64,000 bases of DNA from an uncultured Pseudomonadota bacterium (GCA_963836235.1 CAWIIP010000002.1:139454-203453); one strand, 5' to 3'; counted from the stretch's first letter, positions 28,508 to 61,724 are shown. Translations and numbers: made by a program. Notes: a model not told the origin generated them from the sequence alone.

Positions 28508-28720
28508 TTTAGATTTATCAATTGATAGCTCATTCCAGTTTTAATGGCGTTACCTTGTCCATGACGGGTCCCCCAAGGGGACAACCATTTTCCTCGTAAT
28601 TTACTCGATTTTACACCTTTTGAAGCATATCGGGGTGTGGTTCTTGCGTTGATTACCCCTTGCCAAATCGAGGACTGGGTTCGCTGGGCGTTAAAATTTC
28701 TTTTTTCAAAACCGACCCCT

Positions 28721-32230: not shown

Positions 32231-32237
32231 AAAACCT

Positions 32238-46734: not shown

Positions 46735-46845
46735 GGTGCCGTCCTGGATTGCATTTTAGGGCCATCCAAAAAAATCCTGAACAGAAAGTCGAATAATTTT
46801 AGACCGGGATACCGCCCCGCCGGCCAGGCCGGCGGGGCGAAAATC

Positions 46846-47214
46846 CTAATACTCGTTGGGGACCATCAGGACAGGTTTACCCTCCTGCATAGCGACGTAA
46901 AACTTCCAGGTTCCCTCCGGGAAATCCGTGAATTCGATCTCCTGCCGCACAATTTCTGGCCGGTCGTCGTCCTCCTTCATCGTAAGGATCGCCTTGGAGG
47001 CTTTGACTTCAAGCGTCCAAAACTGGATTTCCTCCTTCCGGGCATAACTGAAAATGGCGTCGATCAGCCAATAGGCCCCGGCAATCTCCGCCACGGCCTG
47101 GACCCCTTCGGTGTAAATGCCTCCCGTAATGTGCTTGAAGTAGCTCACGCTACCCGTGCTCATGGCAAAAACCTCCTCTATCCTCAACTTCTTTACGGCT
47201 TCTTCCCTGTCCAT
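46846..47214 (-). CDS. Hypothetical protein
   Basis: 122-aa ORF; SD AAGGAG upstream; preceded by structured element A1. Confidence 0.4.
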   Translation of the reverse strand: MDREEAVKKLRIEEVFAMSTGSVSYFKHITGGIYTEGVQAVAEIAGAYWLIDAIFSYARKEEIQFWTLEVKASKAILTMKEDDDRPEIVRQEIEFTDFPEGTWKFYVAMQEGKPVLMVPNEY

Positions 47215-47707
47215 AGATGCTCCTTATCTTTATTTGGGAGGGGCCCCCTCCGGGGGGCGGCCCTCAAAGAATCTGGGCCGCAACACGGAGGCGAGAGAGG
47301 GTTGGTGGGTGGAGATTGAGCCGTGCGAAAGAAGCACCTAGCCAACCCCAGCAAACCGCTTCGGGCAAAGTGCCGAAGGGCGGACGCCGCGGCGGACGCA
47401 TCTAGGCATTTAGCGGCCCTTGCCCCTGGGCCAGACGGTATTTGGCGGCCCAGGGGTGCGATCTATCAGGCCAGCGGCACGATGAGGTTTGCGAACCTTG
47501 AAGCCGTTCGATCTTGGGGGTCCGGGGGGATCTTCCGCCCGGGCTAGGAGAGGGGCGCGGGGAGAGGGGTTTTTCTTTCCCCGAAAATTCCGAGGCCCGG
47601 CATAGGGAAGGTTACACGGCCGCTTTGCGGCCGGCGAACCTTCTTCAAACCCGCCAGGGTGCCGGGCCGAGCAAAACAAAAGGCCCCCCTAAGAGGGCCT
47701 CCGGTCT
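47215..47707. promoter_or_regulatory. GC-rich structured noncoding element A1 (member of repeated family with 48934..49620 and 52236..52760)
   Basis: Shares blocks with A2/A3: cccggagggggcccctccc next to the gene start, gggggtccggggg...ccgcccgggcta, and hairpin GAAGGTTACACGGCCGCTTTGCGGCCGGCGAACCTTC. All ORFs called inside are low-complexity P/G/R translations. Confidence 0.6.
47672..47702 (-). terminator. Rho-independent terminator (minus strand) after gene 47708..48100
   Basis: Hairpin AGGCCCCCCTAAGAGGGCCT followed on the minus strand by a U-run (plus-strand caaaacaaaa). Confidence 0.6.
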
Positions 47708-48100
47708 TCAAGCCGTAGGGTGTGAAGATTTTTCCAAGGGGTGTTTCTTGGAACACTTAGGGCAAAACTTCCCGTCTCTGCCCTCGACGGGCAAGGAATC
47801 CTTCAAGAGAATTTCCGTGTTGCAAACTTGGCACCAAGTGGCGTAGGTATCATCCGAAAGGATTTGAGGAACCAATTTTTTAATAAGGCCCTTCCCTACC
47901 GTGGCCCGGCCAAATTCATAAGCCCAACGGGTGGCGGTGTACTTATCCTTTCCCGGCCAAGTAAGGCGGCGGTATTCGTCTCCCTGGGCGGCGTCCCCTC
48001 CGTCGTCGTCCTCCACCTTGAAAACTTGTAAGCCGGGAATGTCTGACACCACATCGGACAAAACCCCACCTTCCATAAAAATGATAATTTTCGGCATAAC
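47708..48100 (-). CDS. Hypothetical protein with C-terminal zinc ribbon
   Basis: Start at MPKIIIFMEGG with SD AAGGAGG; C-terminal CQVCN...CPKC. Confidence 0.45.
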   Translation of the reverse strand, partial: VMPKIIIFMEGGVLSDVVSDIPGLQVFKVEDDDGGDAAQGDEYRRLTWPGKDKYTATRWAYEFGRATVGKGLIKKLVPQILSDDTYATWCQVCNTEILLKDSLPVEGRDGKFCPKCSKKHPLEKSSHPTA

Positions 48101-48107
48101 GTCCTCC

Positions 48108-48404
48108 TTAAAGTTCGTATTTTTCGGCAAAGTTTGAAAGTGATTCAGCGGAAGCGGCACAAACGTCCAGCGCGCGCGCGGCGGCCAAGCCGACAAGGGC
48201 GCTCCCGCCTTCCTCAAAATCCAGTTTTGAAAATATCGTTTCGGCCTGGTCGGTGAGGTAGTTGTTTAAAGCTCCCGCAACTTCCAAAAGGCCGTGATGG
48301 CTTACGAGAAACGCTAAAACGTCATAAGGCTCGTAAGTCTCAAGGCGGTATTTTTTAAACTCCTTTACGGTTTCTTTTTCCGGCCCTAACAATTTGATTT
48401 CCAT
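48108..48404 (-). CDS. Hypothetical protein
   Basis: 98 aa; SD TAGGAGG 6 nt upstream of ATG. Confidence 0.45.
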   Translation of the reverse strand: MEIKLLGPEKETVKEFKKYRLETYEPYDVLAFLVSHHGLLEVAGALNNYLTDQAETIFSKLDFEEGGSALVGLAAARALDVCAASAESLSNFAEKYEL

Positions 48405-48444
48405 AAATCCTCCTAAAATTTTTCATCCCCAAAGGGGCGATTTC

Positions 48445-48933
48445 TTAAACCAAAAGCCCTGCGGTGCGGAAGGAAAAGTGGCCTTCGTGGGTGACTATCA
48501 AGTGATCATGAACGGTTATCCCCAGGGCACGGGCGGCGGTGATAATTTGGCGGGTCAATTGCTTGTCCCCTTCCGATGGTTCAAGGCTTCCGGCTGGGTG
48601 ATTGTGGGAAAATATGATCCCCGTGGCGTTTAACTCCAAAGCTTTTTTTAGTACCTCTCTTGGATAAACGGCGGTATGGTCCACGGTTCCTTCGCTGTTC
48701 AAAACCGTTTCTAAAACGTGGTTGCGGTGGTCGAGGTACATGGTGACAAAAGCCTCTTTGTCCCTGCCTCCGATGTATTTGGCAAAATAGGCCACTACAT
48801 CATCTGGGCTTGTTACAACCGGGCCTCTCTCGTAATCGGTCCTTGCTTCGGACCATGAAACCGGGGGAACCGTGGGGGGAATTTTGAACATCACTTCCAA
48901 AGGCATTTCTAACTGCTTGATTCTCTTGCTCAT
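48445..48933 (-). CDS. radC: RadC-like JAB/MPN domain protein
   Basis: HNHPAGSLEPSEGD (HNHPSG JAMM motif) and surrounding RadC-family conservation. Confidence 0.8.
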   Translation of the reverse strand: MSKRIKQLEMPLEVMFKIPPTVPPVSWSEARTDYERGPVVTSPDDVVAYFAKYIGGRDKEAFVTMYLDHRNHVLETVLNSEGTVDHTAVYPREVLKKALELNATGIIFSHNHPAGSLEPSEGDKQLTRQIITAARALGITVHDHLIVTHEGHFSFRTAGLLV

Positions 48934-49620
48934 TTTGAACGCTCCGCTTTTTTATTAGAGGAGAGAGCACCCTCCGGGTGCGCCCCCTCAAAAATCCTTG
49001 GGGGCGCATACGGAGCGAGTAAGGTGTTTGTGTTGGGGCAAATCAATGTCGGCGGGTCCTGCGCCTTGGTGTTAGCAGACCGGGAAAATTCCCAAACAGG
49101 TTTTGGGCCGAAAGACGAGGAACGAGGCGTGGCCCGTTTGGGAATTTAGGCGCTGACCGATCCCGGCGGCGATAGCCGCCCGTCGATTTGGTTTGCGTCC
49201 TCTATGTCTTTCGTTTCTGGGGTTGCCAGGGGTCACTGTCCCTTGGCTAGGGTGGGGATATAGGGGAGGGTCTTTTCCCTCCCCCTGGGGGGTCCGGGGG
49301 ATGGCTCGAACGAGCCCGCCGCCCGGGCTAGGGTGGGCACCTGGCCCGTCGCTTTCAAAGCGAGGGCCTCGCAGTGGTGGTGCAAACAGCATTGAAGCTG
49401 TTTGCAAAAGGGTAGGGGTACTTCCCTTCCCTGCTTTAATGATTTTCGAGGCGCGGCAAAGGGAAGGTTACACGGCCAAAGGCCGGCGAACCTTCCTCAA
49501 TCCCGATAGGGGCCGCACCGAGACAAAGAACACCTTAATCGGCTTTTCCCCATACACCTTCCCGACCCTTCTCAAGATAGACGCGTTTCACGTAAAGTGT
49601 AATATGTAGGCCTGGCCCCT
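48934..49620. promoter_or_regulatory. GC-rich structured noncoding element A2 (closest relative of A3)
   Basis: First ~60 nt (ttattagaggagagagcaccctccgggtgcgccccctcaaaaatccttgggggcgcatacggagcga) nearly identical to the start of A3; shared ~100-nt block ggtcact...ctagggtgggg...ggggggtccggggga...cgccgcccgggcta; perfect hairpin GCAAACAGCATTGAAGCTGTTTGC; GAAGGTTACACGGCC...GGCGAACCTTC hairpin. Confidence 0.65.
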
Positions 49621-49812
49621 TTTTCTATGGGGAAACGCCGCCCGGTCTACCGTGTGGAAATTGGAGTCGCGGGGAAAAGTTAATCCATAAAAACCGACGA
49701 ACGAATTTGGATTTTAGTGAGGAGGTTTTTAACTTTGAGGGCCGGCGATTAAAAAATTACACAGGCAAAAGGAGGAAATCTGTCCAGAGGGTCCAAAGCC
49801 CCTTTAATGGAA

Positions 49813-50409
49813 TTACTGTGAGGGTGGGAGAGGGAGAGTTGTGATATTTAATTTTTTATTGACGTATTGAATCCATTTCTCAGCGGAATTTCTTTGGTCA
49901 TCTGTCTGGGCCGTTTGAACAGCCGCATTAAAATATTTTAACGAATCTTGCCACCTATCCTCTTTAGTTAATTTTACTCCATACGAGAAGTAAGAATTAA
50001 AGTTTTCACCACCTTCCAAATTTGAAGAATTGGAAGCTTGGAGGTCGGCATTCATATTTTTCTGGTTAAGTTTATTCCAATCAGAGGTAATGGCGTCTAC
50101 GATTAAAGGAATAAAACCTAATAGGAAACCTGGAACAACATCCAAAACTATCCATCCACCATCAACACCATTACTCAACGAGCTTGTTTGGGTGGTATAT
50201 CCAGGTTTCCTAAATTCAACATTATGAGTTTTGTTAGATTCTAGAGGAACAGAAACTGGGGTAGTTCCCCTTTGCAAACCATCAACATAAACTTCTGCAC
50301 CAGGGGGATTGGAGGAAAATTCAACAGGTTCTGCACCACCTTTAAAGACCGTTGCGCAACCGGTAGAAATAAGGCTGAACACTAACATTAAAGCCATTAA
50401 CTTTTTCAT
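49813..50409 (-). CDS. PEGA-domain lipoprotein
   Basis: Start MKKLMALMLVFSLISTGC (lipobox); PPGAEVYVDGLQRGTTP = PEGA motif. Confidence 0.6.
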   Translation of the reverse strand: MKKLMALMLVFSLISTGCATVFKGGAEPVEFSSNPPGAEVYVDGLQRGTTPVSVPLESNKTHNVEFRKPGYTTQTSSLSNGVDGGWIVLDVVPGFLLGFIPLIVDAITSDWNKLNQKNMNADLQASNSSNLEGGENFNSYFSYGVKLTKEDRWQDSLKYFNAAVQTAQTDDQRNSAEKWIQYVNKKLNITTLPLPPSQ

Positions 50410-50555
50410 AACACTCCGAATGATCAAGCGTCCACTTATTTCATCGAGATATAAGGTTAATTGTCGTGACTACCCTTGGTCAACACAAAAATAGGCTAGG
50501 AGGGGAGGCACTTCCGTTGCACACCATCCTTTTTGCGACAGCCATGTGCAGGTAT

Positions 50556-50873
50556 TTAGGCACTCTTTTTCCCGCGGGCGAGTTCCCTTTCAAATAGAAT
50601 CCGCACCCCGAAAGCGTGAAGAACCTTTTCTAAACTCGAAAGGGTTGGATTTCCCTTCTCGGAAAGCATCGTGTAAAGGGATTCCCTCGCAAGTTGTGTT
50701 TCCTTGGAAAGCTTTTTCATCCCGCCTAGGGCGTCGGCCACGTTCTTCAATGCCTTCAAAAAGTATTTAAAATCTCCGGTTTCCCAAGCGGCGTTTATGT
50801 ATCGGACCCGTGTTTTAAGGTCTTGAAGTTCTTCAAACAAATAACTTTTATGGTCAATCAATCCAAATTTCAT
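50556..50873 (-). CDS. Addiction-module antidote protein, HTH type (HI1420-like)
   Basis: LKALKNVADALGGMKKLSKETQLARESLYTMLSEKGNPTLSSLEKVLHAFGV matches the conserved HI1420-type antidote pattern; 4-nt overlap with upstream toxin gene. Confidence 0.7.
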   Translation of the reverse strand: MKFGLIDHKSYLFEELQDLKTRVRYINAAWETGDFKYFLKALKNVADALGGMKKLSKETQLARESLYTMLSEKGNPTLSSLEKVLHAFGVRILFERELARGKKSA

Positions 50874-51244
50874 TTCACGCTCCCTTTAAAAGCCGCCCAT
50901 AGCTTGGTGGCTTTCTTTGTGTCATTATCCTGATTGTCTTTTTCTCCCCCACAAACCACGACGATGATGGCTCCCTTATGATAGCCGTAATAAACCCGGA
51001 AACCTCTTCCGTAATGAATCCTTAATTCCCAAAGGCCCCCGGTCTTTGGCAGGTCGTGATGATCGCCAAAATTCCCGTCCTCCATCCGGTCAACCGCCAT
51101 CCGTATAAGGTCCTTGGCGGTTTCGTCCTTTAAGCGGCGGTGCCACTCCTTGTATAAAACCTTACCGTCTACCTCCAAATATTTAACTACAAAGGGGTGG
51201 TTTTCCATGCCTGAACCTAGTGTAATATTTATATTACTCATTGT
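50870..51244 (-). CDS. Addiction-module killer protein, RelE/ParE superfamily (HI1419-like)
   Basis: GDHHDLPKTGGLWELRIHYGRGFRVYYGYHKGAIIVVVCGGEKDNQDNDTKKATKLW matches the HI1419-type toxin pattern. Start chosen at MSNINITLG; upstream part of the 172-aa ORF looks non-coding. Confidence 0.65.
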   Translation of the reverse strand, partial: TMSNINITLGSGMENHPFVVKYLEVDGKVLYKEWHRRLKDETAKDLIRMAVDRMEDGNFGDHHDLPKTGGLWELRIHYGRGFRVYYGYHKGAIIVVVCGGEKDNQDNDTKKATKLWAAFKGSVK

Positions 51245-51301
51245 CAAATCTTCCTTTCGAAAACAATCCCGAAAGGGGCCGCACCGAGACAAAGAACACC
51301 C

Positions 51302-51343
51302 CAAAAAAAGCCCCCCGGTTTGAAACCGGGGGGCTTTTCTTCC
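51302..51343. terminator. Bidirectional rho-independent terminator downstream of ardC
   Basis: Hairpin GCCCCCCGGTTTGAAACCGGGGGGC flanked by caaaaaaa (5') and ttttcttcc (3'). Confidence 0.65.
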
Positions 51344-51362
51344 TGAAAGGATGGAGCTGTTA

Positions 51363-52235
51363 TTAAGCGGCTTCCTCCTTCTTTTCAAATTTCACGCCTA
51401 AGATAAAGTCGGCTGCGGATTGGGCGAGTGATGCCGCCCGGAAAATGGCGCGGGTGTCATCCTTTAAAACCTTGATCCAGTTTTGGACATAGGCGGCGTG
51501 TTGGGTGTCGTATTCGTAGCCGACATGCCCAGCCAAGAAAGCCCCGCCTATTTCGGCGACAAGTTCCTCGAAGGCATAATCAACTGAACCGAAAACCAGG
51601 GACTGCTTGCGGTTAAGCCGTTTCGGGTGGCCGCTCCAGTGGGTTAGCTCATGGTAACTCGTGGAAAAAAATTTCTCCTCCGTCTTGAAAGAACGGCGAG
51701 GGGGAAGGTTGATATAGTCCAAAGTCGGGGAGTAAAAAGCCTTGTCGGGGTTTTCTTCAACGATCTTCGCCCCGGATTGGGTGAGGATGCGCTCGGCTTC
51801 CTCGTTCTTGTTGAAAGGCTTTTCCTCGGCGCTCTTGGGCCGCAAGTGGTCGAGTCCCTCGGTTTGGTCCAGGTTGAAAACCGTAAAATATTTTAGGTAT
51901 TTGATAACCTTCTTTTCAAAATCCCCTTCCGCTTTTTCCTCCTTCACCGTCAAGGGCTTGAAGAAAATGACCTCAACCCCCTTGGCCCCGGCCTTGATGT
52001 TGCCTCCCGCTGTTTTGGCCTGTTGGTAGGTGAGCCAAGAGTTACAGGAAAAACCCTGGCGGCTCGCAACCGAGGTAAGCCAAATAACATTCACCCCCCG
52101 GTATGCCTTCCGGGTGGCGGCGTTCTTGGGGAAGTTTCCGGTTTTAATCCAGGGCGTTTCCCAAAAAAGATTTCCTTTCTCCATGTCCTCCAAAATTTGG
52201 TTGGTGATTTTCTCCATCAAATCGTTTGTTTTCAT
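51363..52235 (-). CDS. ardC: ArdC-like antirestriction protein (N-terminal ssDNA-binding domain + C-terminal HExxH zincin domain)
   Basis: N-terminus KAYRGVNVIWLTSVASRQGFSCNSWLTYQQAKTAGGNIKAGAKG matches ArdC-N; C-terminal YHELTHWSGH metalloprotease motif. Confidence 0.75.
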   Translation of the reverse strand: MKTNDLMEKITNQILEDMEKGNLFWETPWIKTGNFPKNAATRKAYRGVNVIWLTSVASRQGFSCNSWLTYQQAKTAGGNIKAGAKGVEVIFFKPLTVKEEKAEGDFEKKVIKYLKYFTVFNLDQTEGLDHLRPKSAEEKPFNKNEEAERILTQSGAKIVEENPDKAFYSPTLDYINLPPRRSFKTEEKFFSTSYHELTHWSGHPKRLNRKQSLVFGSVDYAFEELVAEIGGAFLAGHVGYEYDTQHAAYVQNWIKVLKDDTRAIFRAASLAQSAADFILGVKFEKKEEAA

Positions 52236-52760
52236 CTGGCCTGCTCCCTTTGATTTATTAGAGGAGAGCCGCCCTCCGGGTGGGCCCCCTCAAAAATCCT
52301 TGGGGGCCCAAACGGAGCGAAAGAGGTGTTGTTGTTGGGGTAAAACAAGATCGAGGGTCCTGCGGTGTTCCTTTAGCAGATCGGGAAAATTCCAAAACAG
52401 TTGTGGGGCCGGATAAGCCGACGAAGGAGGCCCGGCCCGTTTTGAAATTTAGGCGCCGACCGATCCCGACGGCGTTTATCCGCCCTCACCCTCCAGGTGA
52501 GGGCGAAGGTTGATAATGCCAACTCTATAAGAGTTGGTAAAAGCCGCCCGGCGATTTGTTTTGCGTCCACGTTGTCTTTCGCTTCCGGGGGTTCCGGGGG
52601 TCACTTCCCGCCGGGCTAGGGATGGGAATAGGGAAGGGGCTGTTCCCTTCCCTTGGGGGGGTCCGGGGGAAACGCCGCCCGGACTACAGGTTTGGGAAAC
52701 GGTTGAAAAGGTTGGGGGATAAATCGGCGGGAACAAAACCTTTAAAAAAAAGCCGAAAGG
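52236..52760. promoter_or_regulatory. GC-rich structured noncoding element A3
   Basis: See A2; directly abuts the ardC start codon. Divergent intergenic region shared with SpoVG-like gene 1. Confidence 0.65.
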
Positions 52761-53127
52761 CTTTTCACCTTATGGGCCAAAAAAGCGACCGGCCTTGGGT
52801 CTCACGCCCCTTCCCTCGTCCCCAAATACCGTGGACGGTGAACCAGGCCTCGAACGCTGCCGTTGCACTCTCGCGATTCGTCGCTTAAAGGATTGCCTGA
52901 CCAGAGCTCCAGGTCATCCGCTCCGCTACTTCCCTTCCGCCAAAAGCACGCGGAAGTCCCTTAATCATCGTTGCCGGAAAAACCGGCAACCTCGACTTCC
53001 GCACCAGGCAGGCCTGCTTGAGGGCAGGCCGCCAAGAATCCTTTTTACCCGCGCCCCCCTACTCGTTCGTAGAGGGGGGCGCAGTAAAAAGGCGCGAAAC
53101 CCTCAAATAAAAATGAGGAGGATTCGC

Positions 53128-53547
53128 ATGAATCCAAAGATTGAAGTAGAGAAGTTGAATATCGCCAAGAAAGGACAGCAGGTCGGGACGTTCTCCGCTC
53201 GGGTGGGCTTCGATGGCGGGTGTGAGGTTACTCTACCCGGTATGAGGATCGTCGAGGGGGCCAAAGGGACTTTCGTGGATGTTCCGTCAAGGCAGTTCAA
53301 GGACGTGGGCTTTGTTCCCTTTTACTACTTGAACAAGGCCTTAAGGGATTTAATCACGCATGAGGCGCTGGATGCCTACCGCAAAGCGGTGGCGGAAAAG
53401 GCGGGTGAGAAACCGACGAGTCCGGCGGTGCCGGCGGCCCCTGCAGGGCCCGCAGTTGCGGCGGTAAAGCCGGAAAGTCCAGTGGTTCCCTCTCAAGCGA
53501 AAACGTGGCCACGGAAGGAATGGAAGCCAAACCCGGCAAGGAAATAG
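53128..53547 (+). CDS. SpoVG-like nucleic-acid-binding protein, paralog 1
   Basis: Start at MNPKIEV preceded by SD GGAGGA. FSARVGFDGGCEVTLPGMRIVEGAKGTFVDVPSRQFKDVGFVPFYYLNKALRDLI aligns with SpoVG core ([52 protein letters not shown]). ~250-nt conserved leader at 52840..53127. Confidence 0.6.
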   Translation: MNPKIEVEKLNIAKKGQQVGTFSARVGFDGGCEVTLPGMRIVEGAKGTFVDVPSRQFKDVGFVPFYYLNKALRDLITHEALDAYRKAVAEKAGEKPTSPAVPAAPAGPAVAAVKPESPVVPSQAKTWPRKEWKPNPARK

Positions 53548-53561
53548 AAGATAAAAGAAGG

Positions 53562-53595
53562 GCCCGGGGCCGAGAGGCTCCGGGCTCTTTTTGTT
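53562..53595 (+). terminator. Rho-independent terminator after SpoVG-like gene 1
   Basis: GCCCGGGGCCGAGAGGCTCCGGGC + TCTTTTTGTT. Confidence 0.65.
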
Positions 53596-53645
53596 GAAGG
53601 GGGAAGGTTTGGAGGGGCGTACTACCCCCTCCAACTTTGTCAGTT

Positions 53646-54041
53646 CTAGGGTTTAGGCTGTTTAGCGAAGGTCTTGTCGAACGACCCTTTCCAGCGAATC
53701 CCCTTTACCCGACCTTCCATGATTGCGTCCGCCTTCTCGTCAATTTCTTTGGCGAGTTTGGGACCGGGTTTATAAAATTTCGTTCCATTGTATTCAAAAA
53801 GGAATTTGTTAGATTTACTTCTCAGGCGGGTCTTTTTCGGCAGGTTTGCCTTATTCGGTTTCTTAGGTTTTGATTTCACGATTTTCCCCCCAACCAAGGC
53901 ATCCGCCACGTTTTTGAGGGAAGAAAGAATATGTTTCTTATCCCGCCTGTCGAGGGCGGCGTTTAGATAACCCTTCCTGATTTCAGGGTCTTTTAGTTCC
54001 TTCAAAAGAAATTCATGATGATCGACTGTTCGGCCTTTCAT
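53646..54041 (-). CDS. Protein with HI1420-type antidote-like N-terminus fused to a basic Lys-rich tail
   Basis: KGRTVDHHEFLLKELKDPEIRKGYLNAALDRRDKKHILSSLKNVADALVGG parallels the N-terminus of 50556..50873, but the HTH part is replaced by a K/P-rich region. Confidence 0.4.
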   Translation of the reverse strand: MKGRTVDHHEFLLKELKDPEIRKGYLNAALDRRDKKHILSSLKNVADALVGGKIVKSKPKKPNKANLPKKTRLRSKSNKFLFEYNGTKFYKPGPKLAKEIDEKADAIMEGRVKGIRWKGSFDKTFAKQPKP

Positions 54042-54080
54042 ATTATCCTCCGTTGGAAAGCTCCTAAGGCGCAAACACCT

Positions 54081-54419
54081 TTAAAAGTTTACGGTTAAGT
54101 CAACGTTCTTAACCAGATCGGAAGCCGTCACCCCCAAGGCCTTGGCAATAAGGTCAATTATTCCTAAGGTCGGGCTATAGGTGCTGTTCTCGTTTTCAAT
54201 ATTCAAAACCGTCCGGCTGGAAACACCCGCCTTCTCGGCCAATTCAACTTGGGTCAATTTCTTCTTGTTCCGCAACTTAATGAGGTTCCAACCAAGGGAA
54301 ACCCTTGGGCTCGGATTCTTCAAAGAGGCGTAAAGGTCGGGCCGTCTTTTCTTAAGGTGTTTAATGTCTTCTTCAATGGAAACTCCCGGCAAAACAATTT
54401 TTTTAAAATGTGTTTTCAT
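54081..54419 (-). CDS. XRE-family HTH protein (antitoxin-like)
   Basis: LIKLRNKKKLTQVELAEKAGVSSRTVLNIEN = HTH_XRE. Confidence 0.7.
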   Translation of the reverse strand: MKTHFKKIVLPGVSIEEDIKHLKKRRPDLYASLKNPSPRVSLGWNLIKLRNKKKLTQVELAEKAGVSSRTVLNIENENSTYSPTLGIIDLIAKALGVTASDLVKNVDLTVNF

Positions 54420-54707
54420 TTATTCCCCCTCCAATGCTTTTATTTCAGCTAAGTATTTTTGAATCGCCTCTTTTTCTTTTTCGCGCGGCTCCCCCGCCCT
54501 GGTGATATGGGCGGTCAAAATGAAAAGGGCGTGCAACTTAAAAGACAAATAATAATTCACCACCAAAACCCTTTTTTCTCCCTTTAAAATTTTATCAAAA
54601 AAACCAGAACGGTCTTTAGCATAAGCAAGCCCCAAAACCTGGAACCTTAAAAGGTCAAGCTCTTCCCGGTCCATAATGTTGTCCCGGAAGTTCCGAAAAT
54701 ACGGCAT
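54420..54707 (-). CDS. Putative toxin partner of the downstream XRE antitoxin (RelE/HigB-like?)
   Basis: 95 aa; directly abuts the HTH gene in HigBA-like order; sequence assignment weak. Confidence 0.4.
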   Translation of the reverse strand: MPYFRNFRDNIMDREELDLLRFQVLGLAYAKDRSGFFDKILKGEKRVLVVNYYLSFKLHALFILTAHITRAGEPREKEKEAIQKYLAEIKALEGE

Positions 54708-54748
54708 AAATCCATAAAAACCTCACTTCTTATTATGTGTAGTATCCT

Positions 54749-54991
54749 TCATATAGTCAAGTACGACAAACTGCGCTCGATAAAATCCTCATAATCCGAA
54801 TCAAAAACATCCTGGCACTTGAGGCAGTTTCCGGTTTCTTCGTCTAACGGGAGGGCGTTGCTTCCGCACGAAAAACAAAACCCCTTGCAAGCGGGGCAGG
54901 GTGTCCCCTCTTTTTCGTCGTCCCATCCGTGGCCACATTTCCAAGCGGAAAAAGGAAAATGGAGTCCTGTTTTAGAAATTTCGTTTATCAA
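54749..54991 (-). CDS. Small Cys-rich (zinc-binding) protein
   Basis: 80 aa with CGHGW, CPACKGFCFSCG, CLKC clusters. Confidence 0.4.
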   Translation of the reverse strand: MINEISKTGLHFPFSAWKCGHGWDDEKEGTPCPACKGFCFSCGSNALPLDEETGNCLKCQDVFDSDYEDFIERSLSYLTI

Positions 54992-55098
54992 ATTTTTTCT
55001 CCTTAAATCCTTTCTTCTTTGATTAGTTCCAAAAACCTATCGATTTCCTGGTCGGGAACCCTGAAAAGTTCCTCTATGTTTTTGATCTCTTCGTTCAT

Positions 55099-55560
55099 TT
55101 CCCCTGCTCCTTCGCTTTTTTTTCGGGGCTTTTAAGTTCCTGCCCCCACCGGCACAAGCCGGCGGTGGGGGCAGGAACTTGAAGGGGATTCCGCAGGAAA
55201 AATTTGGTTTCAATGCGACAGCAGCGCCGACCTTGCCGACCATGACAATTGCGATCTTCAATTGGCGTGGGCGGTGCTTTGCAGTCGGCGCATTTGAAAG
55301 GAATTAAATTTTCTTAGGAATAGACCATTGGCAAAGCGGGGGCACCTCGCCCTTTGCCCACAAGGCAAAGGGCGGCGTCTTGGTTGTGCAAACAGCAATA
55401 AGCTGTTTGCACATAGGGGCGGGTTGGCCCCGGATGGTTAAATGGATGAAGGTTACACGCCCGCGAAATCAGCGGTCGGCGAACCTTCTTAGGTATTTTT
55501 CGAAGGGACTTAGGCTTTCAACAAGGCCTTAAAACCAAAACCGCGAACGGCGATCCGAAA
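55099..55560. promoter_or_regulatory. Structured noncoding element B1 (related to 59504..59800; contains sub-modules also found in A2)
   Basis: 17-bp hairpin TTCCTGCCCCCACCGGC-ACAA-GCCGGCGGTGGGGGCAGGAA; conserved block gacaattgcgatcttcaattggcgtgggcggtgctttgcagtcggcgcat; hairpin GCAAACAGCAATAAGCTGTTTGC; GAAGGTTACACGCCC...GGCGAACCTTC. A 31-aa micro-ORF (55003..55098, minus) sits at its edge. Confidence 0.6.
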
Positions 55561-55863
55561 CCTCAAGTCAAAGATAAAGAATGCCAACACAGATTCATAA
55601 GGAATCAGCAACCGGCCTGGCCCTCCGGGACCCCGGGCAAAATCAGCCCGGCGGCCTCGAACGCTGTCGGCCTCCTCCTCCGTCGTCGCCTTTCGCGATT
55701 CGTCGCTTAAAGCAATTTTCTAACAGGGCTACAGGTCATCCGCTCCGCTGCTTCCCTTCCGCAAAGGAACATACAAACTTTTTACCGCGCCCCCCTACTC
55801 GTTCGTAGAGGGGGGCGCAGTAAAAAGGCGCGAAACCCCAAAATAAAAATGAGGAGGATTCGA

Positions 55864-56280
55864 ATGAATCCAAAGATTGAAGTTGTGAAGTTGAATATCG
55901 CCAGGAAGGGACACCAGGTCGGGACGTTCTCCGTCAAGGTTGGGTTCGATGGCGGGTGTGAAGTGACGCTACCGGGGATGAGGATCGTCGAGGGTTCCAA
56001 AGGAACCTTCGTGGATCTGCCGGCGAGAAAGTTCAAGGAAGGGGGCTTTGTTCCCTTCTACTACTTGAACAAGTCTTTGAAGGATTTGATCACCAAGGAA
56101 GGGCTGGAGAATTACCGAAAGGCCGGGACGGGGAAGCAACCGGAGAAGGCGGCATTCGCGGTCCCTGCGGCCGCAAGGCCAGCGGCGGCCAGCGCGACCA
56201 TGGTTTCAAAACCAACGGTTCCTGCTCCGGCGAAAACGTGGCCACGGAAGGAGTGGAAACCGAATTCATTTAAAAAATAA
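55864..56280 (+). CDS. SpoVG-like nucleic-acid-binding protein, paralog 2
   Basis: MNPKIEVVKLNIARKGHQVGTFSVKVGFDGGCEVTLPGMRIVEGSKGTFVDLPARKF... ~85% identical to paralog 1 over the N-terminal 90 aa; same SD and conserved leader (55630..55863). Confidence 0.6.
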   Translation: MNPKIEVVKLNIARKGHQVGTFSVKVGFDGGCEVTLPGMRIVEGSKGTFVDLPARKFKEGGFVPFYYLNKSLKDLITKEGLENYRKAGTGKQPEKAAFAVPAAARPAAASATMVSKPTVPAPAKTWPRKEWKPNSFKK

Positions 56281-56293
56281 AAGAAGGAAAATG

Positions 56294-56327
56294 GCCCGGC
56301 TCCTAGAGGAGTCGGGCTTTTTTTGTT
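56294..56327 (+). terminator. Rho-independent terminator after SpoVG-like gene 2
   Basis: GCCCGGCTCCTAGAGGAGTCGGGC + TTTTTTTGTTT. Confidence 0.65.
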
Positions 56328-56380
56328 TCGCGGGGGGAGGTTTGGAGGGGCGTCCTACCCTCTTCTAGCCTTTTTGGGAT

Positions 56381-56581
56381 TTATTCGGGGTGAACTTCAA
56401 TTCCCTTCACGGCCCCGCTTTTCATTTCCTTATAACGAACTATGATTTCTTTATGCTCTTTGGCGGTTGGTTTCCTGAACTTTAAAGGGGCGTTTTTGTA
56501 AACAGCCTCAACCAATTCAGCCACCAGCCTCCCAACCTTGGGGACTCTTGGCCCGTGGGCCGTCTTTTTCATCAGATTCAA
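56381..56581 (-). CDS. Small protein, possible ParD/RelB-like antitoxin (C-terminal EMKSG.VK motif)
   Basis: 66 aa; C-terminus VRYKEMKSGAVKGIEV shares a motif with 57725..57976. Confidence 0.3.
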   Translation of the reverse strand: MNLMKKTAHGPRVPKVGRLVAELVEAVYKNAPLKFRKPTAKEHKEIIVRYKEMKSGAVKGIEVHPE

Positions 56582-56772
56582 ACTTTAGACAATCGGCGTT
56601 CAACTGAGCGCGAGGGCGGCATAAGTTCCTTTTTGCAAACACTTTTTATGAACTCATCCGTCTCTTTTCGATGCTTTTGATTAAACTTTACAATTCCCAG
56701 ACGGTTCATCTCGTTGGAAACTCTCTGTTTCCATTTTCTGACTTCCGTCAAACTCTTAGGTTCCTTCATCAC
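56578..56772 (-). CDS. Small hypothetical protein
   Basis: 64-aa ORF overlapping the downstream small gene by 4 nt. Confidence 0.3.
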   Translation of the reverse strand: MMKEPKSLTEVRKWKQRVSNEMNRLGIVKFNQKHRKETDEFIKSVCKKELMPPSRSVERRLSKV

Positions 56773-56802
56773 CTAACACCTCCAAAGGGGATGGCAATTT
56801 AA

Positions 56803-57156
56803 TTAATGTCCTGCCGCTGGAACCAATCCCGTCAATTTACCCGCCATTTCGAAAAGAAGCTTTTTTGTTTGGGAGGGGTGAGTTTTTATGCCTTCTGCCC
56901 AATAGCCAACCGCCGCCGGAATCGGGTTCTTACCTTGCTCCCATTTCTTTACCGTTTCCGAACTAACAGCCATGATTCGGGCGAATTGGGGTTGGGAAAC
57001 CTTCAGAATATTTCTCGCGTCCTTTATATCCTGGCCTGTAGTGCGGATGAAAAGGTTTTCGACCTTAACTTTGGCGGGTTTCCCTTGGGCAAATTTGAGA
57101 CCTTCCCTAAGGCTTTCCCTGAACAATTTCTTTTCTTCCTTTGTTTTTTTCATCAT
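56803..57156 (-). CDS. HTH (XRE/HigA-like) antitoxin
   Basis: ARNILKVSQPQFARIMAVSSETVKKWEQGKNPIPAAV = HTH of HigA-type antitoxins; 4-nt overlap with upstream toxin gene. Confidence 0.65.
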   Translation of the reverse strand: MMKKTKEEKKLFRESLREGLKFAQGKPAKVKVENLFIRTTGQDIKDARNILKVSQPQFARIMAVSSETVKKWEQGKNPIPAAVGYWAEGIKTHPSQTKKLLFEMAGKLTGLVPAAGH

Positions 57157-57602
57157 CGATCCCCTCCCTCTTTCTGGTAGGCTTTTTTTATGCCTTCCGC
57201 GGTTTTTTTTAGTTCCTTTAAATCATTGGCGTCTAAATTTAATTTATTCCTGTGGTCGTAAATTGAGAACAGGTAAATATCATGTTGAACACGAAAAAGA
57301 AGGTAAGTGAATCTAAAGCCTCCGCTTTTCCCGATGTTCCGGCTGGGTGATTTTGCCCGGCCTTTTATCCATCCTCCCGTACCTTTGATTTCGTCAAGCT
57401 TTCCGGATTCAACTTCCAACCTGATACTGTCACGTATTTCCTCGTGTAATTTGGGCTCCAACCTCACCAATTTTTTAAGGTCGCTCTCATATTGAAGGAG
57501 CTTAATGAGGCGGTATTTGATTTTCGAAACGTCAATTTCTTCCACGAGTACCCTAATCTTTATGATATGGTATCTTATACCATATGTCATATAACAGGTC
57601 AA
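57153..57602 (-). CDS. RelE/HigB-family toxin
   Basis: GKSGGFRFTYLLFRVQHDIYLFSIYDHRNKLNLDANDLKELKK matches the RelE/HigB C-terminal core. Confidence 0.6.
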   Translation of the reverse strand: MTCYMTYGIRYHIIKIRVLVEEIDVSKIKYRLIKLLQYESDLKKLVRLEPKLHEEIRDSIRLEVESGKLDEIKGTGGWIKGRAKSPSRNIGKSGGFRFTYLLFRVQHDIYLFSIYDHRNKLNLDANDLKELKKTAEGIKKAYQKEGGDR

Positions 57603-57724
57603 CCAATATATTATGAAAACCCGGATACAAAGCCTCCGGCGGGGCCATTCCTTTACTTGCCCTTTTCATCGGGAGAGCCTTGTAGACCCTAGGGCCGCTG
57701 TTCTCCTTCGAGGACCATTAGCTC

Positions 57725-57976
57725 TTAAAGTTTCTCCAAGTGTTTGATGAGGTCTTGAGAAGAAATCGTCTTGACCTTGCCGCTTTTCATTTCGGCCACC
57801 CCACGGCGAATCTCTGCCGCTTCCTTGGGTGAAGGCTTGCTAAACTTCCAGCCCTTGTGTTCAACGATATCATTTGATTTGTTACCCACGGCGGTATCTT
57901 TCAGGCCGGACTTTTTCATCGGGAATCCAAGTCCCTTCCCGGTCGGCTTTTGCGGCGGCTTTAACAATCTTCGCAT
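57725..57976 (-). CDS. Small basic protein with ParD/RelB-like C-terminal motif
   Basis: C-terminus IRRGVAEMKSGKVKTISSQDLIKHLEKL. Confidence 0.3.
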   Translation of the reverse strand: MRRLLKPPQKPTGKGLGFPMKKSGLKDTAVGNKSNDIVEHKGWKFSKPSPKEAAEIRRGVAEMKSGKVKTISSQDLIKHLEKL

Positions 57977-58057
57977 GGGTTTTAGCGTCGGGCTTGGTGA
58001 GTTTAAGCCCCATGTGTTCCACCACTACCTTTTTAATCAAAATCCCCTCCAACATTT

Positions 58058-58375
58058 TTACTTCTTCTTTCCAAATAGGCGCCGGTACTCCTCGGCGGAA
58101 ATTCCCTTGCGTTTCTTTCCGTAGCCTTCCGTAACCCTGGCCCCTCCGTGGAAGATTCCGTAACCAAGTTTCTTTTTCGCCATGGGTTGAATGGCCTCAA
58201 GGAAATCCTGCCACTTTGGATCGTGGGCCTTCTGGCCCATTTCGATGGCGGCCTGAACGGCCCCACGGGCGAAGGATGAGAAGTCCTTCACGCCCAAAGC
58301 CTTAAGGGACTCTTCCCAATACTTCGCCTGGGAAGATTTAGCTTTGAAACGGATCATCACGAATTTTCTTTTCAT
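58058..58375 (-). CDS. Hypothetical protein
   Basis: 105-aa basic protein; no motif recognised. Confidence 0.35.
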   Translation of the reverse strand: MKRKFVMIRFKAKSSQAKYWEESLKALGVKDFSSFARGAVQAAIEMGQKAHDPKWQDFLEAIQPMAKKKLGYGIFHGGARVTEGYGKKRKGISAEEYRRLFGKKK

Positions 58376-58441
58376 CCAAAGCCTTTCCTAATAAGAACCT
58401 GGCGAATAACTCCAGCCTACCCGCGACTAAAATATTTAAAC

Positions 58442-58843
58442 TTATCGAATCCACTTCACCTTAATGTCTTTTTCAACGGATTTGAATTCTTTGTCCCCGG
58501 TCACGAGGTGGGCGTTTCTCAATTTTGCCGTCGCGGCGGCGTATGCGTCGGCGTAAGACATCTTATGAGTCCCTTTGAATCGCGCCGCAACAAGGGTCAA
58601 TTCCCTACCCACGTCCAAAACCTGGATATCCATTTCCGCAAGCGTTTTTTCATACAGCATCGCTCTTTCTTCCCCGCCCTCCCTAAAAGCCGTGTACCAA
58701 ACCTCTCCCCAATTCACGATACAAAGGAAAGCCTCGGCGTGGCCGTCCGCGATTTCATTTAAAACGGAAACAACGACTTCCTTGCCCTCTTCCCCTTCCA
58801 AATAGGCCAAAAGGGCGTGGGCGTCCAAAACGTAATGTTTCAA
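58442..58843 (-). CDS. vapC: PIN-domain toxin VapC
   Basis: 133 aa; VLDAHALLAYL... and acidic residues in PIN spacing; overlaps antitoxin by 4 nt. Confidence 0.8.
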   Translation of the reverse strand: MKHYVLDAHALLAYLEGEEGKEVVVSVLNEIADGHAEAFLCIVNWGEVWYTAFREGGEERAMLYEKTLAEMDIQVLDVGRELTLVAARFKGTHKMSYADAYAAATAKLRNAHLVTGDKEFKSVEKDIKVKWIR

Positions 58844-59070
58844 AGCTCGCGCTCAGCTTTCTTTTCTTCCGCCAAAAGCTTTAAAAGCTTGCCCTTGGTC
58901 CCGAGAATCCCGCAGTTCTTCCTTATCAAATCCTTGGTCATGGGAACCATGCGGATCTCCCCGTCTTTCTCAAAAAATTTGACGGAAGTCCCCTTCTTGA
59001 TTCCGAATTTTTCCCTGAATTCAGCCGGAATGACTACTTGGCCTTTTTCGGAAACGTGTGTAATCAGCAT
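58840..59070 (-). CDS. vapB: AbrB/SpoVT-type antitoxin VapB
   Basis: Start MLITHVSEKGQVVIPAEFREKFGIKKGTSV (swapped-hairpin AbrB-like domain) with SD GGGAGG. Confidence 0.7.
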   Translation of the reverse strand: MLITHVSEKGQVVIPAEFREKFGIKKGTSVKFFEKDGEIRMVPMTKDLIRKNCGILGTKGKLLKLLAEEKKAEREL

Positions 59071-59194
59071 AAAAACCTCCCAAAAGTAAAACATATTTAC
59101 TATGTAAAACTTATTTATAAGGTACAACTTTATTGAACCGTAGTCAAATAAAGACTAATTGCCGGGTACAAAGCCCCCGGCGGGGCCGTTCCTC

Positions 59195-59503
59195 TTACTT
59201 GCCCTTTTTCACCGGGAGGGCCTTGTAGACCTTCTCGGCTTCGGGCAGAACCTCGTCGTTGAGGTTGTTGAAGGGGTAGTAGCACTTGATGAATTCAGGC
59301 TTGCCACCTTGCTCCTTCGCTTGCTTGACCTCGTGGATTGCGGAGTCCACTTTCAACCCCTTATCCGTCTGGACTAGCCGGTAGTTCGGTAGGGTGATAA
59401 GCGGCTCACCGTCCACCGACACCGTGACCTTGAAAAATGCCAGGGTCTTGGTGTCCTCCTTCTTGGTTTTTTTCATGTCCTTCACTTCGATTTGCAGTCC
59501 CAT
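59195..59503 (-). CDS. SpoVG-like protein, divergent paralog 3
   Basis: Start MGLQIEVKDMKK with SD AAGGAG. LAFFKVTVSVDGEPLITLPNYRLVQTDKGLKVDSAIHEVKQ...FIKCYYPFNN...AEKVYKAL aligns position-by-position with paralogs 1 and 2. Confidence 0.45.
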   Translation of the reverse strand: MGLQIEVKDMKKTKKEDTKTLAFFKVTVSVDGEPLITLPNYRLVQTDKGLKVDSAIHEVKQAKEQGGKPEFIKCYYPFNNLNDEVLPEAEKVYKALPVKKGK

Positions 59504-59800
59504 GACTTGCTCCTTATTTTTATTATTGCCTGGGGCCTTCGGCCTCTTTTTTGCGGGACTTTTAAATTTCCGGCCCCGCCGGCACAAGGCCGGCGGCGGG
59601 GCTGGAAATTAAGAAGGGGATTCCATCTTGGGAATTTATTCACCAAGCGATAGCGGCGCCGACCCGATGTTTTTTATCGCCCTTGGCCGAAGGCCAACGG
59701 GTAGGCCTCACATGACAATCGCGGGTTTCGATTGGCGTGGGAGGTGCCTCGCAGTCGGCGCATCTTTAAAAAATAAATTTTCAAAGGAATCTTCACGTAT
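59504..59800. promoter_or_regulatory. Structured noncoding element B2
   Basis: Hairpin TTCCGGCCCCGCCGGC-ACAA-GGCCGGCGGCGGGGCTGGAA with compensatory changes relative to B1; conserved block gacaatcgcgggtttcgattggcgtgggaggtgcctcgcagtcggcgcat. Confidence 0.6.
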
Positions 59801-59987
59801 TATTGCCCGACTGGACAATACCAGTGACCGAAGTGAAATAGTAATCAGTGAGAGGATTAGGTAAAGGGCAAAAGTTTTGGGCCTTAGCAACATTCACCAA
59901 CATTAGACAGATAAAAAATATATTCAGTTTTTGAAAAATAATTTTCAATTTCAACAACCTTAGATAGAACTTTTTCTTGAACCCGAT

Positions 59988-60725
59988 TTAATTAGAATGA
60001 TATTTTCCAACCGGTTCTGCGTACTTGACCGATGGGTCAGTTTTCATTTCTTCAATTGCGTCTTTCACGGACATTCCATTTGTAATTTGAATAAGGTAAT
60101 ATTCCATTTTAAGAGCTTGTAAAACTTCATGCTTTACGTCACCTATCGACCCCATTAGTTTGAGGACTCTTTCATTATCAGTTGCGGGAATATCTGATTT
60201 TAATCCGACCATAATTTGATTCGCATCGTAATCTTTACCTGGCACAAGCCGATCCCAATTGGGGGTCGGGTAAGGTTTGTGCGTTGGGGTTGGTGTTGGA
60301 GAAGCGAAAAAAGTTTCCAAGTTAGTAATGATAACGGGTTCAGCAAATGAAACAGCTGGATCAGCTTTCAGCTTTTCGTAAGCGCCTTTCGACGACATAC
60401 CATTTGTAACCTTGATATTCCAACCTTCCGCCCCATTGGTATTTTTTGTAACACCCATCGACATCATTATTCCAATAATTCTATTTTTTTCAGAAAGAGG
60501 GAGGTGTGGTTTTAACCCGACCAAAATCACCTTGTCTTTTTCAAGAACCGGCCAATTAAAATGACGTGTCGGAACGGGAGAAGAAGAAGTAAGGTTTGCC
60601 CCATTGACACTTCCATTTGATTGAAGTGAAGTGGGACCTGCCGAGGCCGAAGAAAAAATAAAATATTGTATTATCAACAAAAATGATAAAAATAAATTTC
60701 TATGCTTGCGAAAGTCCATTGTCAA
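59988..60725 (-). CDS. Secreted protein with two tandem subtilisin-propeptide (inhibitor I9)-like domains
   Basis: Signal peptide; two ~75-aa repeats ending VSFAEPV / VKYAEPV, typical of I9 propeptide C-termini; no protease domain. Confidence 0.5.
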   Translation of the reverse strand: MTMDFRKHRNLFLSFLLIIQYFIFSSASAGPTSLQSNGSVNGANLTSSSPVPTRHFNWPVLEKDKVILVGLKPHLPLSEKNRIIGIMMSMGVTKNTNGAEGWNIKVTNGMSSKGAYEKLKADPAVSFAEPVIITNLETFFASPTPTPTHKPYPTPNWDRLVPGKDYDANQIMVGLKSDIPATDNERVLKLMGSIGDVKHEVLQALKMEYYLIQITNGMSVKDAIEEMKTDPSVKYAEPVGKYHSN

Positions 60726-60756: not shown

Positions 60757-61724
60757 AATCCAGATTCACCCCGGTCAGGCGCACGGTGCAGCCGCCGCTG
60801 GCGGTGACGATTTCGTTTCCGGAAACCTTAAGCAGGGGAGGAGCGGCTTGCGCGGGAGTTGGACCGAAAAAAGTGGAACCCAAAAGCACAAAAAGCGAAA
60901 GAAAGAAAAAGTTCATTTCGCCCCGGGACGTTTTAAGCCGGGAACCAAAGAACGTTTTCGTTTTGAAAAATAAGTTTTGTGGAGACCTGTTCAAAGTGTC
61001 ACCCGATACACTGGTTAAAGGTTGCGGAACAATTGGCAACAAAACTCGAAATGTTTCATCGCTTCTCATGAACCGGAATTTCCCAGATGACCTTCTCTGA
61101 AAACATTGCCGGGTAATTTGTTTCTCATTATATCGCCCCCCCCCCCCCGCTTCTTCCATCCGAATCCGGAATTTTCCGTCCTGGGCCACTGAAATAAGCC
61201 CCAGGAAAAGGTTTCTGTGCCCAAAAAAGCTGAAATTGACCTTCTGGAAAGCCAATTCTCGTTGTGAGCGCACACCTATCCTGCGGTAGTCGCTCGGGTT
61301 GAAGCCTTGATGCCTTCCTGCGGTTATCGCAGTACTGGCGCTCGCGGCCTTACCATTGCCAGTAGCCGTATCCGATTGAGGATTTCAGCAAACAGGCGTC
61401 GGGAAACCATCACCTCCGCCATCTGGAAAATAACGTACCGCGAATGACGGATGACATTAGCCCCGATCTTGATGAGTTTTTCCCTCAAGGTCGTTAGCGA
61501 CCAATGTTTCACCAGTTCTGGCAGTGCCAGTCGGCGCAGGAAGTTGCCCAGATTGTAGGCCAGGGCGAATAGTTGTAAGCGCACTTGGTTGTCCGCGAAG
61601 TCGTGGCAGCTTAGTCTTGTCCACTTCATCGCATACTTTCCCTCTTTGATCCACTGCTCAGCCGTGCCTCTTCCGTTGTAGAATTTCACCACCTGGGGTG
61701 CCGGTCGTCGCATGTTCGTTACGA
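60757..61724. repeat. Segmental duplication copy B (968 bp), containing a 5' pseudogene fragment of the GH5 gene (60757..60969, minus strand)
   Basis: Identical to 35985..36900 apart from a 53-nt insertion (61020..61072) and C13 vs C14 tract. Includes the cellulase ATG (60969..60967) and first 71 codons fused to unrelated sequence. Confidence 0.9.

Follow-up and report, generated by a model that had tools for sequence, protein, structure and literature searches.

Frpo and ssi elements are single-stranded DNA (ssDNA) promoters in the leading regions of F-like and IncI plasmids (Masai & Arai 1997; Samuel et al. 2024, PMC11541004). In the leading regions of enterobacterial plasmids, these elements precede ssb, psiB and ardA (PMC11541004). 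The radC (RF01754) and STAXI (RF01728) motifs are candidate RNA motifs, for which the ambiguity between RNA and ssDNA has been discussed (Weinberg et al. 2010, PMC2864571). Here, a non-coding leader of about 270-350 nt is described. It precedes two genes for SpoVG-like proteins, gene A (53128..53547) and gene B (55864..56280), both on the plus strand of a 64,000-nt stretch of DNA from an uncultured Pseudomonadota bacterium (GCA_963836235.1 CAWIIP010000002.1:139454-203453; hereafter the window). Both genes belong to a mobile island at approximately 36.6-60.7 kb. By comparison of homologous sequences, the leader is a new structured element backed by covariation. It is a new candidate regulatory RNA and not a small protein-coding gene.

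The two leaders, here called copy A and copy B, can be aligned from approximately 52785 (GCGACCGGCC) and 55608 (GCAACCGGCC) to approximately 53634 and 56365, past the terminators of the genes. An earlier note on this DNA had proposed that a long leader is conserved and carries a hairpin close to the Shine-Dalgarno (SD) sequence; such a leader is real, and structural selection acts on it. The shared upstream blocks listed there are all present in both copies, and the coordinates and sequences given were confirmed. The start codons (ATG at 53128 and 55864) each lie 6 nt past GGAGGA. The 3' part, which had been called identical over 70 nt, is near-identical: the copies differ at three positions (53103, 53104 and 53127) in the last ~80 nt of the leader. 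This part is more conserved than the coding DNA (88% identity, first 300 nt of repeat D4). The hairpin GCGCCCCCCTAC...TAGAGGGGGGCGC exists as described, and its stem continues outward via CTTTTTAC/GTAAAAAG. Such a small number of differences could be taken as a sign of a recent cassette duplication or gene conversion, in which case the leader would have no function.

Homologues were collected by protein-guided scans of genome and metagenome collections, contig look-ups with exact proteins, nhmmer, and covariance models of the 5' domain (R1) and the 3' domain (R2). At least 17 distinct homologous leaders come from other metagenome-assembled genomes (MAGs) and from metagenomes, and 22 distinct leader sequences align to each model. 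Homologous loci are designated L001, L002 and so on; L012 lies on the 61-kb contig WOOD18-1 scaffold_3206, and L014 on contig_106471. The genes behind the leader encode the long SpoVG-like form, a short SpoVG-like subfamily or, where the leader is diverged or chimeric, RadC. The RadC cases are an operon of a 31-aa gene and RadC in L017 and a frameshifted RadC-like open reading frame (ORF) in L011. It should be mentioned that L011 (Ga0137405_1342919) is a low-quality contig with many frameshifts, which interrupt its two SpoVG-like ORFs as well as the RadC-like one. Reading frames inferred from it are unreliable, and only the HNHP motif in the raw translation identified the latter ORF as RadC-like. 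No Rfam family matched at gathering score in the whole window, and at E ≤10 only chance-level hairpin matches were found in the region 48-60.5 kb. A blastn search of the leader against PLSDB (72,556 plasmids, F-like ones included) and a search of IMG/VR with an exact two-block DNA pattern gave no match.

The 5' domain of copy A occupies 52785..52889 on the plus strand (R1 match 52779-52889, 134.6 bits). Helix P2 (GGCCU/AGGCC; 52791-95 with 52845-49) closes a junction that holds P2a (52797-800 with 52806-09) and P2b (52817-23 with 52831-37). The latter is a freely varying stem with a 7-nt A-rich loop, AAAUACC. Helix P3 (CGAACGC/GCG-A-UUCG; 52851-57 with 52873-80) contains a 2-bp covarying apical pair. 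The variable middle (52890..52948) consists of the hairpin GGAU-u-GCCUG...CAGGU-c-AUCC and a conserved C-rich block, CUUCCCUUCCGCC. Two alternative hairpin designs occur in this region among the homologues, and its C/G ratio is about 1.7-1.8. An optional, branched insertion of ~87 nt (52949..53036) follows, with an outer stem GCGGAAGUC/GACUUCCGC around one hairpin and then a second hairpin. Neither copy B nor the orthologous MAG locus L001 has this insertion; it is found in L012, where the sequence differs and the stems are kept. P5 is a long hairpin (53041..53091) with an AU-rich outer stem CUUUUUAC/GUAAAAAG, a small internal loop CC/A and a GC inner stem GCGCCCCCC/GGGGGGCGC. The GGCGCG after P5 (53091-53096) is invariant. 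The translation-initiation module (53101..53135, plus strand) comprises an anti-SD sequence, CCUCA (53101-05), which can pair with UGAGG (53114-18) across an A-rich loop; the SD sequence GGAGGA (53117-22); and P6, GGAUUC (53120-25) with GAAUCC (53130-35), which surrounds the AUG. In addition, copy A has a conserved upstream extension (52743..52784, plus strand) with a small hairpin AAAGCC-GAAA-GGCUUU and a GNRA-type loop. This hairpin occurs in one leader subgroup (window A, L001s, L013s, L002s, L005s, L020 and L011), and its loop is GAAA, or GAGA in L020.

Copy B, also on the plus strand, has a 5' domain of type 2 (55608..55711; R1 match 55602-55711, E 4e-12). Its P2a is short (CCC-UCC-GGG), its P2b is CCGGGC-AAAAUCA-GCCCGG, and its P3 loop holds a YC-rich insertion of 15 nt. 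The variable middle (55712..55777) carries the C-rich block CUUCCCUUCCGC. The 3' part (55778..55871; R2 match 55773-55875, 121 bits) consists of P5 (55778-55827), GGCGCG, an A-rich spacer, SD (55853-58) and P6 (55856-61 with 55866-71) around the AUG at 55864. The conserved junction domain sits more than 100 nt from the module of the ribosome-binding site (RBS), and the variable region and the optional insertion lie between them. No riboswitch-like pairing that competes between the junction domain and the RBS module was found. A long-range helix GCGACC/GGCGC proposed by RNAalifold was rejected: it is invariant, or broken in L002, L021, L001s, L010 and L017r, with no compensation.

Covariation was strong in both the 5' and the 3' domains when compared with shuffled and slid controls. 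In the 5' domain (alignment A6), 92.2% of the cells are paired, versus 72.7% in shuffled alignments and at most 48% with slid partners. Changes on both sides were observed for 20 of the 25 pairs, and the score was 0.452 (0.145 when shuffled). In the 3' domain (alignment A9), 90.1% of the cells are paired versus 82.3% in shuffled alignments, both sides changed in 13 of 28 pairs, and the score was 0.191 (0.080 when shuffled). On four of the five measures, no shuffle matched the observed values; the exception, "further standard pair types", was reached in 18 of 500 and 10 of 500 shuffles. The stem swaps are plain in unaligned sequences, too. P2b is CGUCC/GGACG, CAUCC/GGAUG, CCACCG/CGGUGG, CACCCGU/ACGGGUG, CCCCUGC/GCAGGGG or CCGGGC/GCCCGG. 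P2a occurs both as GGG/CCC and as CCC/GGG. Most leaders have a P3 of CGAACGC/GCGAUUCG, and L010 has one of GGUUUGC/GCACAACC. The arms of P5 are wholly different yet complementary in L010, L014s, L003 and L017r (A9). Compensatory base changes in the aligned leaders were shown to conserve four helices of the 5' domain and the long GC hairpin. The leader and its compensatory substitutions persist in loci whose proteins share just 42-70% identity with copy A, and it accompanies different SpoVG-like subfamilies (44-52% identical to copy A). A functionless duplicate is contradicted by this covariation, and this explanation seems scarcely tenable.

The earlier note had read the leader as a translated small ORF (peptide GLERCR...AIRRLK...FPSAK) followed by attenuator-like alternative hairpins. 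This model is contradicted by the data and is highly improbable. In-frame stops occur in eight of the 16 homologues (L002, L007, L010, L017, L019, L020, L021 and L022); the stop lies inside block 1 in L021 and directly past block 2 in L020. Blocks 2 and 3 are 52-65 nt apart, with spacings in all three residue classes modulo 3, and the two leader types differ by 16 nt upstream of block 1. Neither a conserved start codon nor an SD for the proposed ORF was found among the homologues. The spacing of blocks 1 and 2, 26 nt (or 41 nt) in 15 of the 16 leaders, would suit a reading frame; the constant 26 nt is, however, required by helix P3. The third-position bias from which translation had been suspected does exist (42 deviations versus 24 and 25; 15 sequences, proposed frame), but the excess is slight and is driven by few columns. 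As for the mutually exclusive pairings, P5 is not followed by a U-tract and the GCGC...GCGC alternative is not conserved. It is impossible in L010, L011, L011s and L014s, where the rest of the architecture is retained. No conserved competitor for the 5' arm of P5 was found in the homologous leaders. The leader shares with leader-peptide attenuators its length, its several hairpins and its position upstream of a regulated gene. It differs from them in that there is no conserved translatable ORF, no terminator/antiterminator pair and no U-tract, and it was rejected as a member of this class.

The RBS of the leader is boxed in. The 5' half of SD can pair with the upstream CCUC(A/C), and its 3' half and codons 2-3 form the 6-bp hairpin round the AUG. 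The mean unpaired probability of positions -14..+3 was 0.40 in 20 leaders versus 0.57 in 22 other genes of the window, and the minimum free energy of the initiation region was -14.5 versus -9.1 kcal/mol. P6 varies from leader to leader: AU (11), GU (7) and UA (3) were found at one pair, CG (17) and UG (4) at another, and UA/CG was also seen. P6 covaries with codon 2, which is AAU, GAA or GAU. It contains 12 G-U cells and no A-C cells (A9). Since G-U is tolerated and A-C does not occur, we conclude that P6 is selected on the mRNA strand. Of the strand tests, that on P6 alone is decisive, and as judged from the base pairs in these leaders, it points to the mRNA strand. Further features are typical of RNA: hairpins have A-rich loops, and both the flanking hairpin and the terminator carry loops of the GNRA type (GAAA/GAGA).

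With moderate confidence, the leader is considered to be a cis-acting RNA of the 5' untranslated region (UTR), which would keep the RBS closed until a trans factor, possibly the SpoVG-like protein, acts. It would be the 5' UTR of the SpoVG-like mRNA and would act on translation, and possibly on stability or read-through. Initiation might be damped by default. The trans factor might dock at the junction of the 5' domain and at the invariant single-stranded blocks, and its binding would open or lock the RBS. The most economical candidate for this factor would be a protein that binds nucleic acids and is encoded on the island, possibly the SpoVG-like protein in a feedback. The same leader is shared by SpoVG-like genes of both lengths and, where it is diverged or chimeric, by RadC. 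Rho might, in addition, enter at the middle region, which is rich in C and poor in G.

Several points weigh against this cis-acting role. The trans factor is one that we purely infer. The anti-SD pairing is weak in approximately one third of the leaders (those of the ACCCCAAAA type). Because A6 and A9 were both fitted to the models, these alignments lean toward the structure that the models specify. Wobble pairs in the 5' domain (11 G-U versus 8 A-C) do not choose a strand. At one internal position of P5, C.A is found in 11 of 22 leaders, U-A in 3 and C-G or G-C in 7; this is the pattern expected of a G.U pair on the opposite strand. The antisense strand always folds more stably, by 5-22 kcal/mol. 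This stability is due to the C/A-rich, G-poor composition of the sense strand, and folding energy was rejected as a strand criterion. An unbiased count of 1x1 mismatches did not decide the strand, either. Finally, no transcription start or promoter could be identified for the leaders. A sigma-70 promoter scan found nothing in or just before them, and nothing convincing upstream of the 5' boundary, with a consensus that may not be that of this phylum.

The main rival is a folded ssDNA in conjugative transfer, that is, a counterpart of Frpo/ssi that would serve as an ssDNA promoter, as a priming site for the complementary strand, or as both. This seems unlikely, although several observations fit it. 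The content of the island resembles that of a leading region (ArdC, RadC, toxin-antitoxin), and a coupling protein of a type IV secretion system (T4SS) is encoded 6 kb from the SpoVG-like gene of L012. As in Frpo (PMC11541004), structured leaders of ~300 nt are repeated before different genes, in at least three families across the loci. Read on the opposite strand, the C.A of P5 and the A.C at the end of P2 in L003 would become G.T wobbles, and the conserved hairpin after the terminator is hard to account for as RNA. P6, selected on the mRNA strand, and the orientation of the leaders speak against it. In every locus, the SpoVG-type leaders and their genes point opposite to the ArdC, RadC and toxin-antitoxin genes, which in known plasmids are templated by the transferred strand (PMC11541004). 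In L011, homologous leaders that front RadC and SpoVG-like genes stand back to back on opposite strands, 70 nt apart, and one transferred strand cannot template both; in L017 such a pair is ~0.8 kb apart. A role at the RNA level is thus favoured over a function of one transferred strand, because both orientations occur and because the SpoVG-type leaders oppose ArdC, RadC and the toxin-antitoxin genes. Furthermore, no stem was found that could rebuild a -35/-10 duplex (P5 has at most 22 bp), no pair resembling TTGACA/TATAAT was seen, and no DNA similarity to any PLSDB plasmid, Frpo-bearing F-like ones included, was found.

It is quite improbable that the leader, or its complement, is a small RNA gene of its own or an antisense RNA and merely abuts the SpoVG-like gene. 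The conserved structured region does reach at least 40-70 nt upstream of GCGACC and includes further hairpins there, the antisense strand is the more stably folded one, and hairpin modules upstream of leader B lie between P5 and SD in L022 and hence are portable. Conservation is, however, unbroken into SD and the start codon, and no terminator lies between leader and gene. The element is always co-oriented with a gene and directly upstream of it, and no match to Rfam was obtained. The cis-acting 5'-UTR RNA remains the preferred reading.

Gene A encodes 139 aa, with a SpoVG fold (residues 1-93), a disordered linker and a conserved C-terminal motif, AKTWPRKEWKP; gene B encodes 138 aa. A third, divergent paralog (59195..59503, minus strand) encodes 102 aa. 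The linker and the motif are additions of the long form; a second subfamily is short, with 98-104 aa (L001:1476, L013:1899, L002, L005, L011 and L014). That the window has three SpoVG-like paralogs, as stated in the earlier note, was borne out by a family profile, by structure prediction and, for the third paralog, by hhalign. Direct comparison with the Pfam family PF04026 (SpoVG) gave 22.6 bits (E 1.2e-4) for A and B, under the gathering score of 29.6 bits, and no match for the third paralog. In contrast, a profile of the A/B family matched the solved SpoVG 2i9z with E 4.1e-5 across residues 8-96. The same profile recovers proteins above the PF04026 cut-off (P0021, 32.7; P0033, 36.5; P0062, 43.8; P0101, 96.1; and P0030, 145.6 bits). 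In a Foldseek search with an AlphaFold2 model, the best eight PDB matches were all SpoVG, with a target-normalised TM score of 0.53-0.68; the confidence of the model is moderate (mean pLDDT 67.9; block means 63-87 over residues 1-90; below 50 in the tail, 94-128). The third paralog matched the A/B family with a probability of 92.6% (E 4.6e-7). These results support the assignment of all three proteins to SpoVG at the superfamily level. The family is small: 18 clusters were found by a word-indexed search, and 119 representatives at E ≤1e-3 among 1.84 billion. A PHROGs search with the three paralogs and their neighbours gave nothing useful, and tblastn of the SpoVG-like protein against the PLSDB plasmids gave no match.

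Gene A is followed by an intrinsic terminator (53561-53595, plus strand), whose stem covaries, and by a second, conserved hairpin, UUGGAGGGG-CGUACUA-CCCCUCCAA (53609-53634, plus strand). The corresponding elements of gene B are at 56293-56328 and 56344-56365, also on the plus strand. The downstream motif that the two copies had been said to share, GGTTTGGAGGGGCGTMCTACC, is real and folds as this hairpin. It stands after the terminator in 9 of the 18 homologous loci, whatever the adjoining gene, and its sense strand has G-C in some loci and G-U in others.

Weaker matches to R2 (E 5e-5 to 5e-3) were found on the correct strand just upstream of other minus-strand genes of the island: RadC (48924-49021), ArdC (52224-52323), a small zinc-finger gene (55080-55186) and a 122-aa gene (47194-47295). 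A second leader family, the RadC/ArdC type, occupies 48934-49260 and 52236-52561 (both minus strand), which are ~85% identical over ~325 nt. Its GC hairpin GGGCCCCC...GGGGGCCC, between CUCCG and CGGAG, is conserved in L001, L003, L004, L006 and L012. A third family, the "zf" type, occupies 54992-55330 and 59504-59800 (both minus strand), before a gene for an 80-aa zinc-finger-like protein and before the third SpoVG-like paralog, at whose leader no R1 match was found. It has a perfect hairpin of 23 bp (55133-55182) and is conserved in L001, L002, L005, L012, L013, L018, L019 and L021; in L017, the chimeric RadC leader has a 3' part of this family. The three families together front most of the cargo genes (ArdC, RadC, small zinc-finger, toxin-antitoxin-adjacent and SpoVG-like genes). 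In all of them, a common terminal module runs from a long GC hairpin through a C-rich/A-rich spacer and SD to a hairpin at the start codon. Tentatively, at least three families of ~300-nt structured leaders might constitute an island-wide programme of expression after entry, with the leaders as targets of SpoVG-like proteins, but this wider scheme is doubtful. The SpoVG-like proteins, encoded on the opposite strand in two to three copies, would switch early genes on or off after transfer. Such a programme would be analogous in function to Frpo-based zygotic induction, and it would be built on RNA (or ssDNA) structure and a regulator of the SpoVG fold.

Other hairpins were observed near these leaders. 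Upstream of leader B (55340-55505, plus strand), there are three more. The last is terminator-like (GAAGGUU...GAACCUUC, then U's), with no plus-strand gene before it. Relatives of the first two (55340-55410) are those located between P5 and SD in L022, and to judge from this, the hairpins appear to be portable modules. The 122-aa ORF (46846-47214, minus strand) is preceded by the shared module of hairpin, A-rich stretch and SD, and it resembles a 121-aa ORF in L007 (GxYWLIDAIxSY). A 269-aa plus-strand ORF (46510-47319) that overlaps it is probably spurious. In L001, L002 and L005, the palindrome TTGTCCACGACGGGTCCCCGTCGTGGACA precedes the leaders of the short SpoVG-like genes by ~100 nt. In the window it occurs as a repeat resembling repetitive extragenic palindromes at 25244-25272, 26338-26366 and 28555-28583.

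The window is a chromosomal stretch, with the housekeeping genes SecA, LigA, RibBA and RibD within 1-15 kb. Its closest relatives in public data are MAGs that carry the label candidate division FCPU426, and one more has the label "uncultured proteobacterium". The island is flanked on both sides by pieces of an insertion sequence that are 100% identical (35985-36611 = 60757-61435). Both segments contain a run of 13 C (36311-36323 and 61136-61148), and the right-hand one runs on into a DDE_Tnp_1_4 transposase gene (61324-62703, minus strand). The cargo comprises a type III restriction-modification system, an S1/P1 nuclease, RadC (48445-48933, minus strand), ArdC (51363-52235, minus strand), several toxin-antitoxin-like pairs and the three SpoVG-like genes. 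Because of the T4SS coupling protein near the SpoVG-like gene in L012, islands of this type are, on gene content, taken to be conjugative or descended from conjugative elements. Neither oriT nor a relaxase was found for these islands. In the region 32200-36300 (minus strand), a 1090-aa ORF (33031-36303) and its neighbours are made of 12-nt-periodic repeats that are G/T-rich on the plus strand. The units of 222 nt are 90% identical, GC reaches 0.62 and the skew is strong; the product of the ORF is probably a repetitive surface protein. A scan for tRNA and transfer-messenger RNA found none.

If the leader is a regulatory RNA, it is a new motif, large and well supported, from an uncultured phylum. 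In that case, the SpoVG-fold proteins, whose roles are still debated, gain a concrete genetic partner on mobile elements. To our knowledge, no SpoVG gene has been reported with such a leader. Autoregulatory leaders, such as those of ribosomal-protein genes, are similar in having a structured 5' UTR, invariant single-stranded blocks, a gene for a nucleic-acid-binding protein and an RBS within structure. The present leader differs in that it also precedes RadC in some elements, and its SpoVG-like protein is a putative binder. The radC and STAXI motifs are likewise defined by covariation and stand before DNA-handling genes of mobile elements (radC, antirestriction, ssb, integrases). Their models gave no match at E ≤10 in 48000-60500. 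They consist of repeated pseudoknots, whereas the leader has a multi-helix junction and a long hairpin, and the phylum and the main associated gene, here SpoVG-like, are different.

The likeness to Frpo/ssi lies in homologous, hairpin-rich, non-coding elements of ~300 nt, repeated directly before several of a conjugative element's establishment or anti-defence genes. The neighbouring genes are also similar, with ArdC, RadC and toxin-antitoxin modules here. In contrast, the leaders described here have no sequence similarity to Frpo/ssi and no stem that rebuilds -35/-10 hexamers ~17 bp apart, although the consensus of this phylum may differ. Moreover, the SpoVG-type leaders oppose the anti-defence genes, both orientations occur, and selection of the RBS hairpin acts on the mRNA strand. 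Taken with its two sister families, the leader suggests that conjugative islands far from Proteobacteria time their anti-defence and establishment genes by long structured leaders, a question of timing for which Frpo of enterobacterial plasmids has been nearly the only case studied to date.

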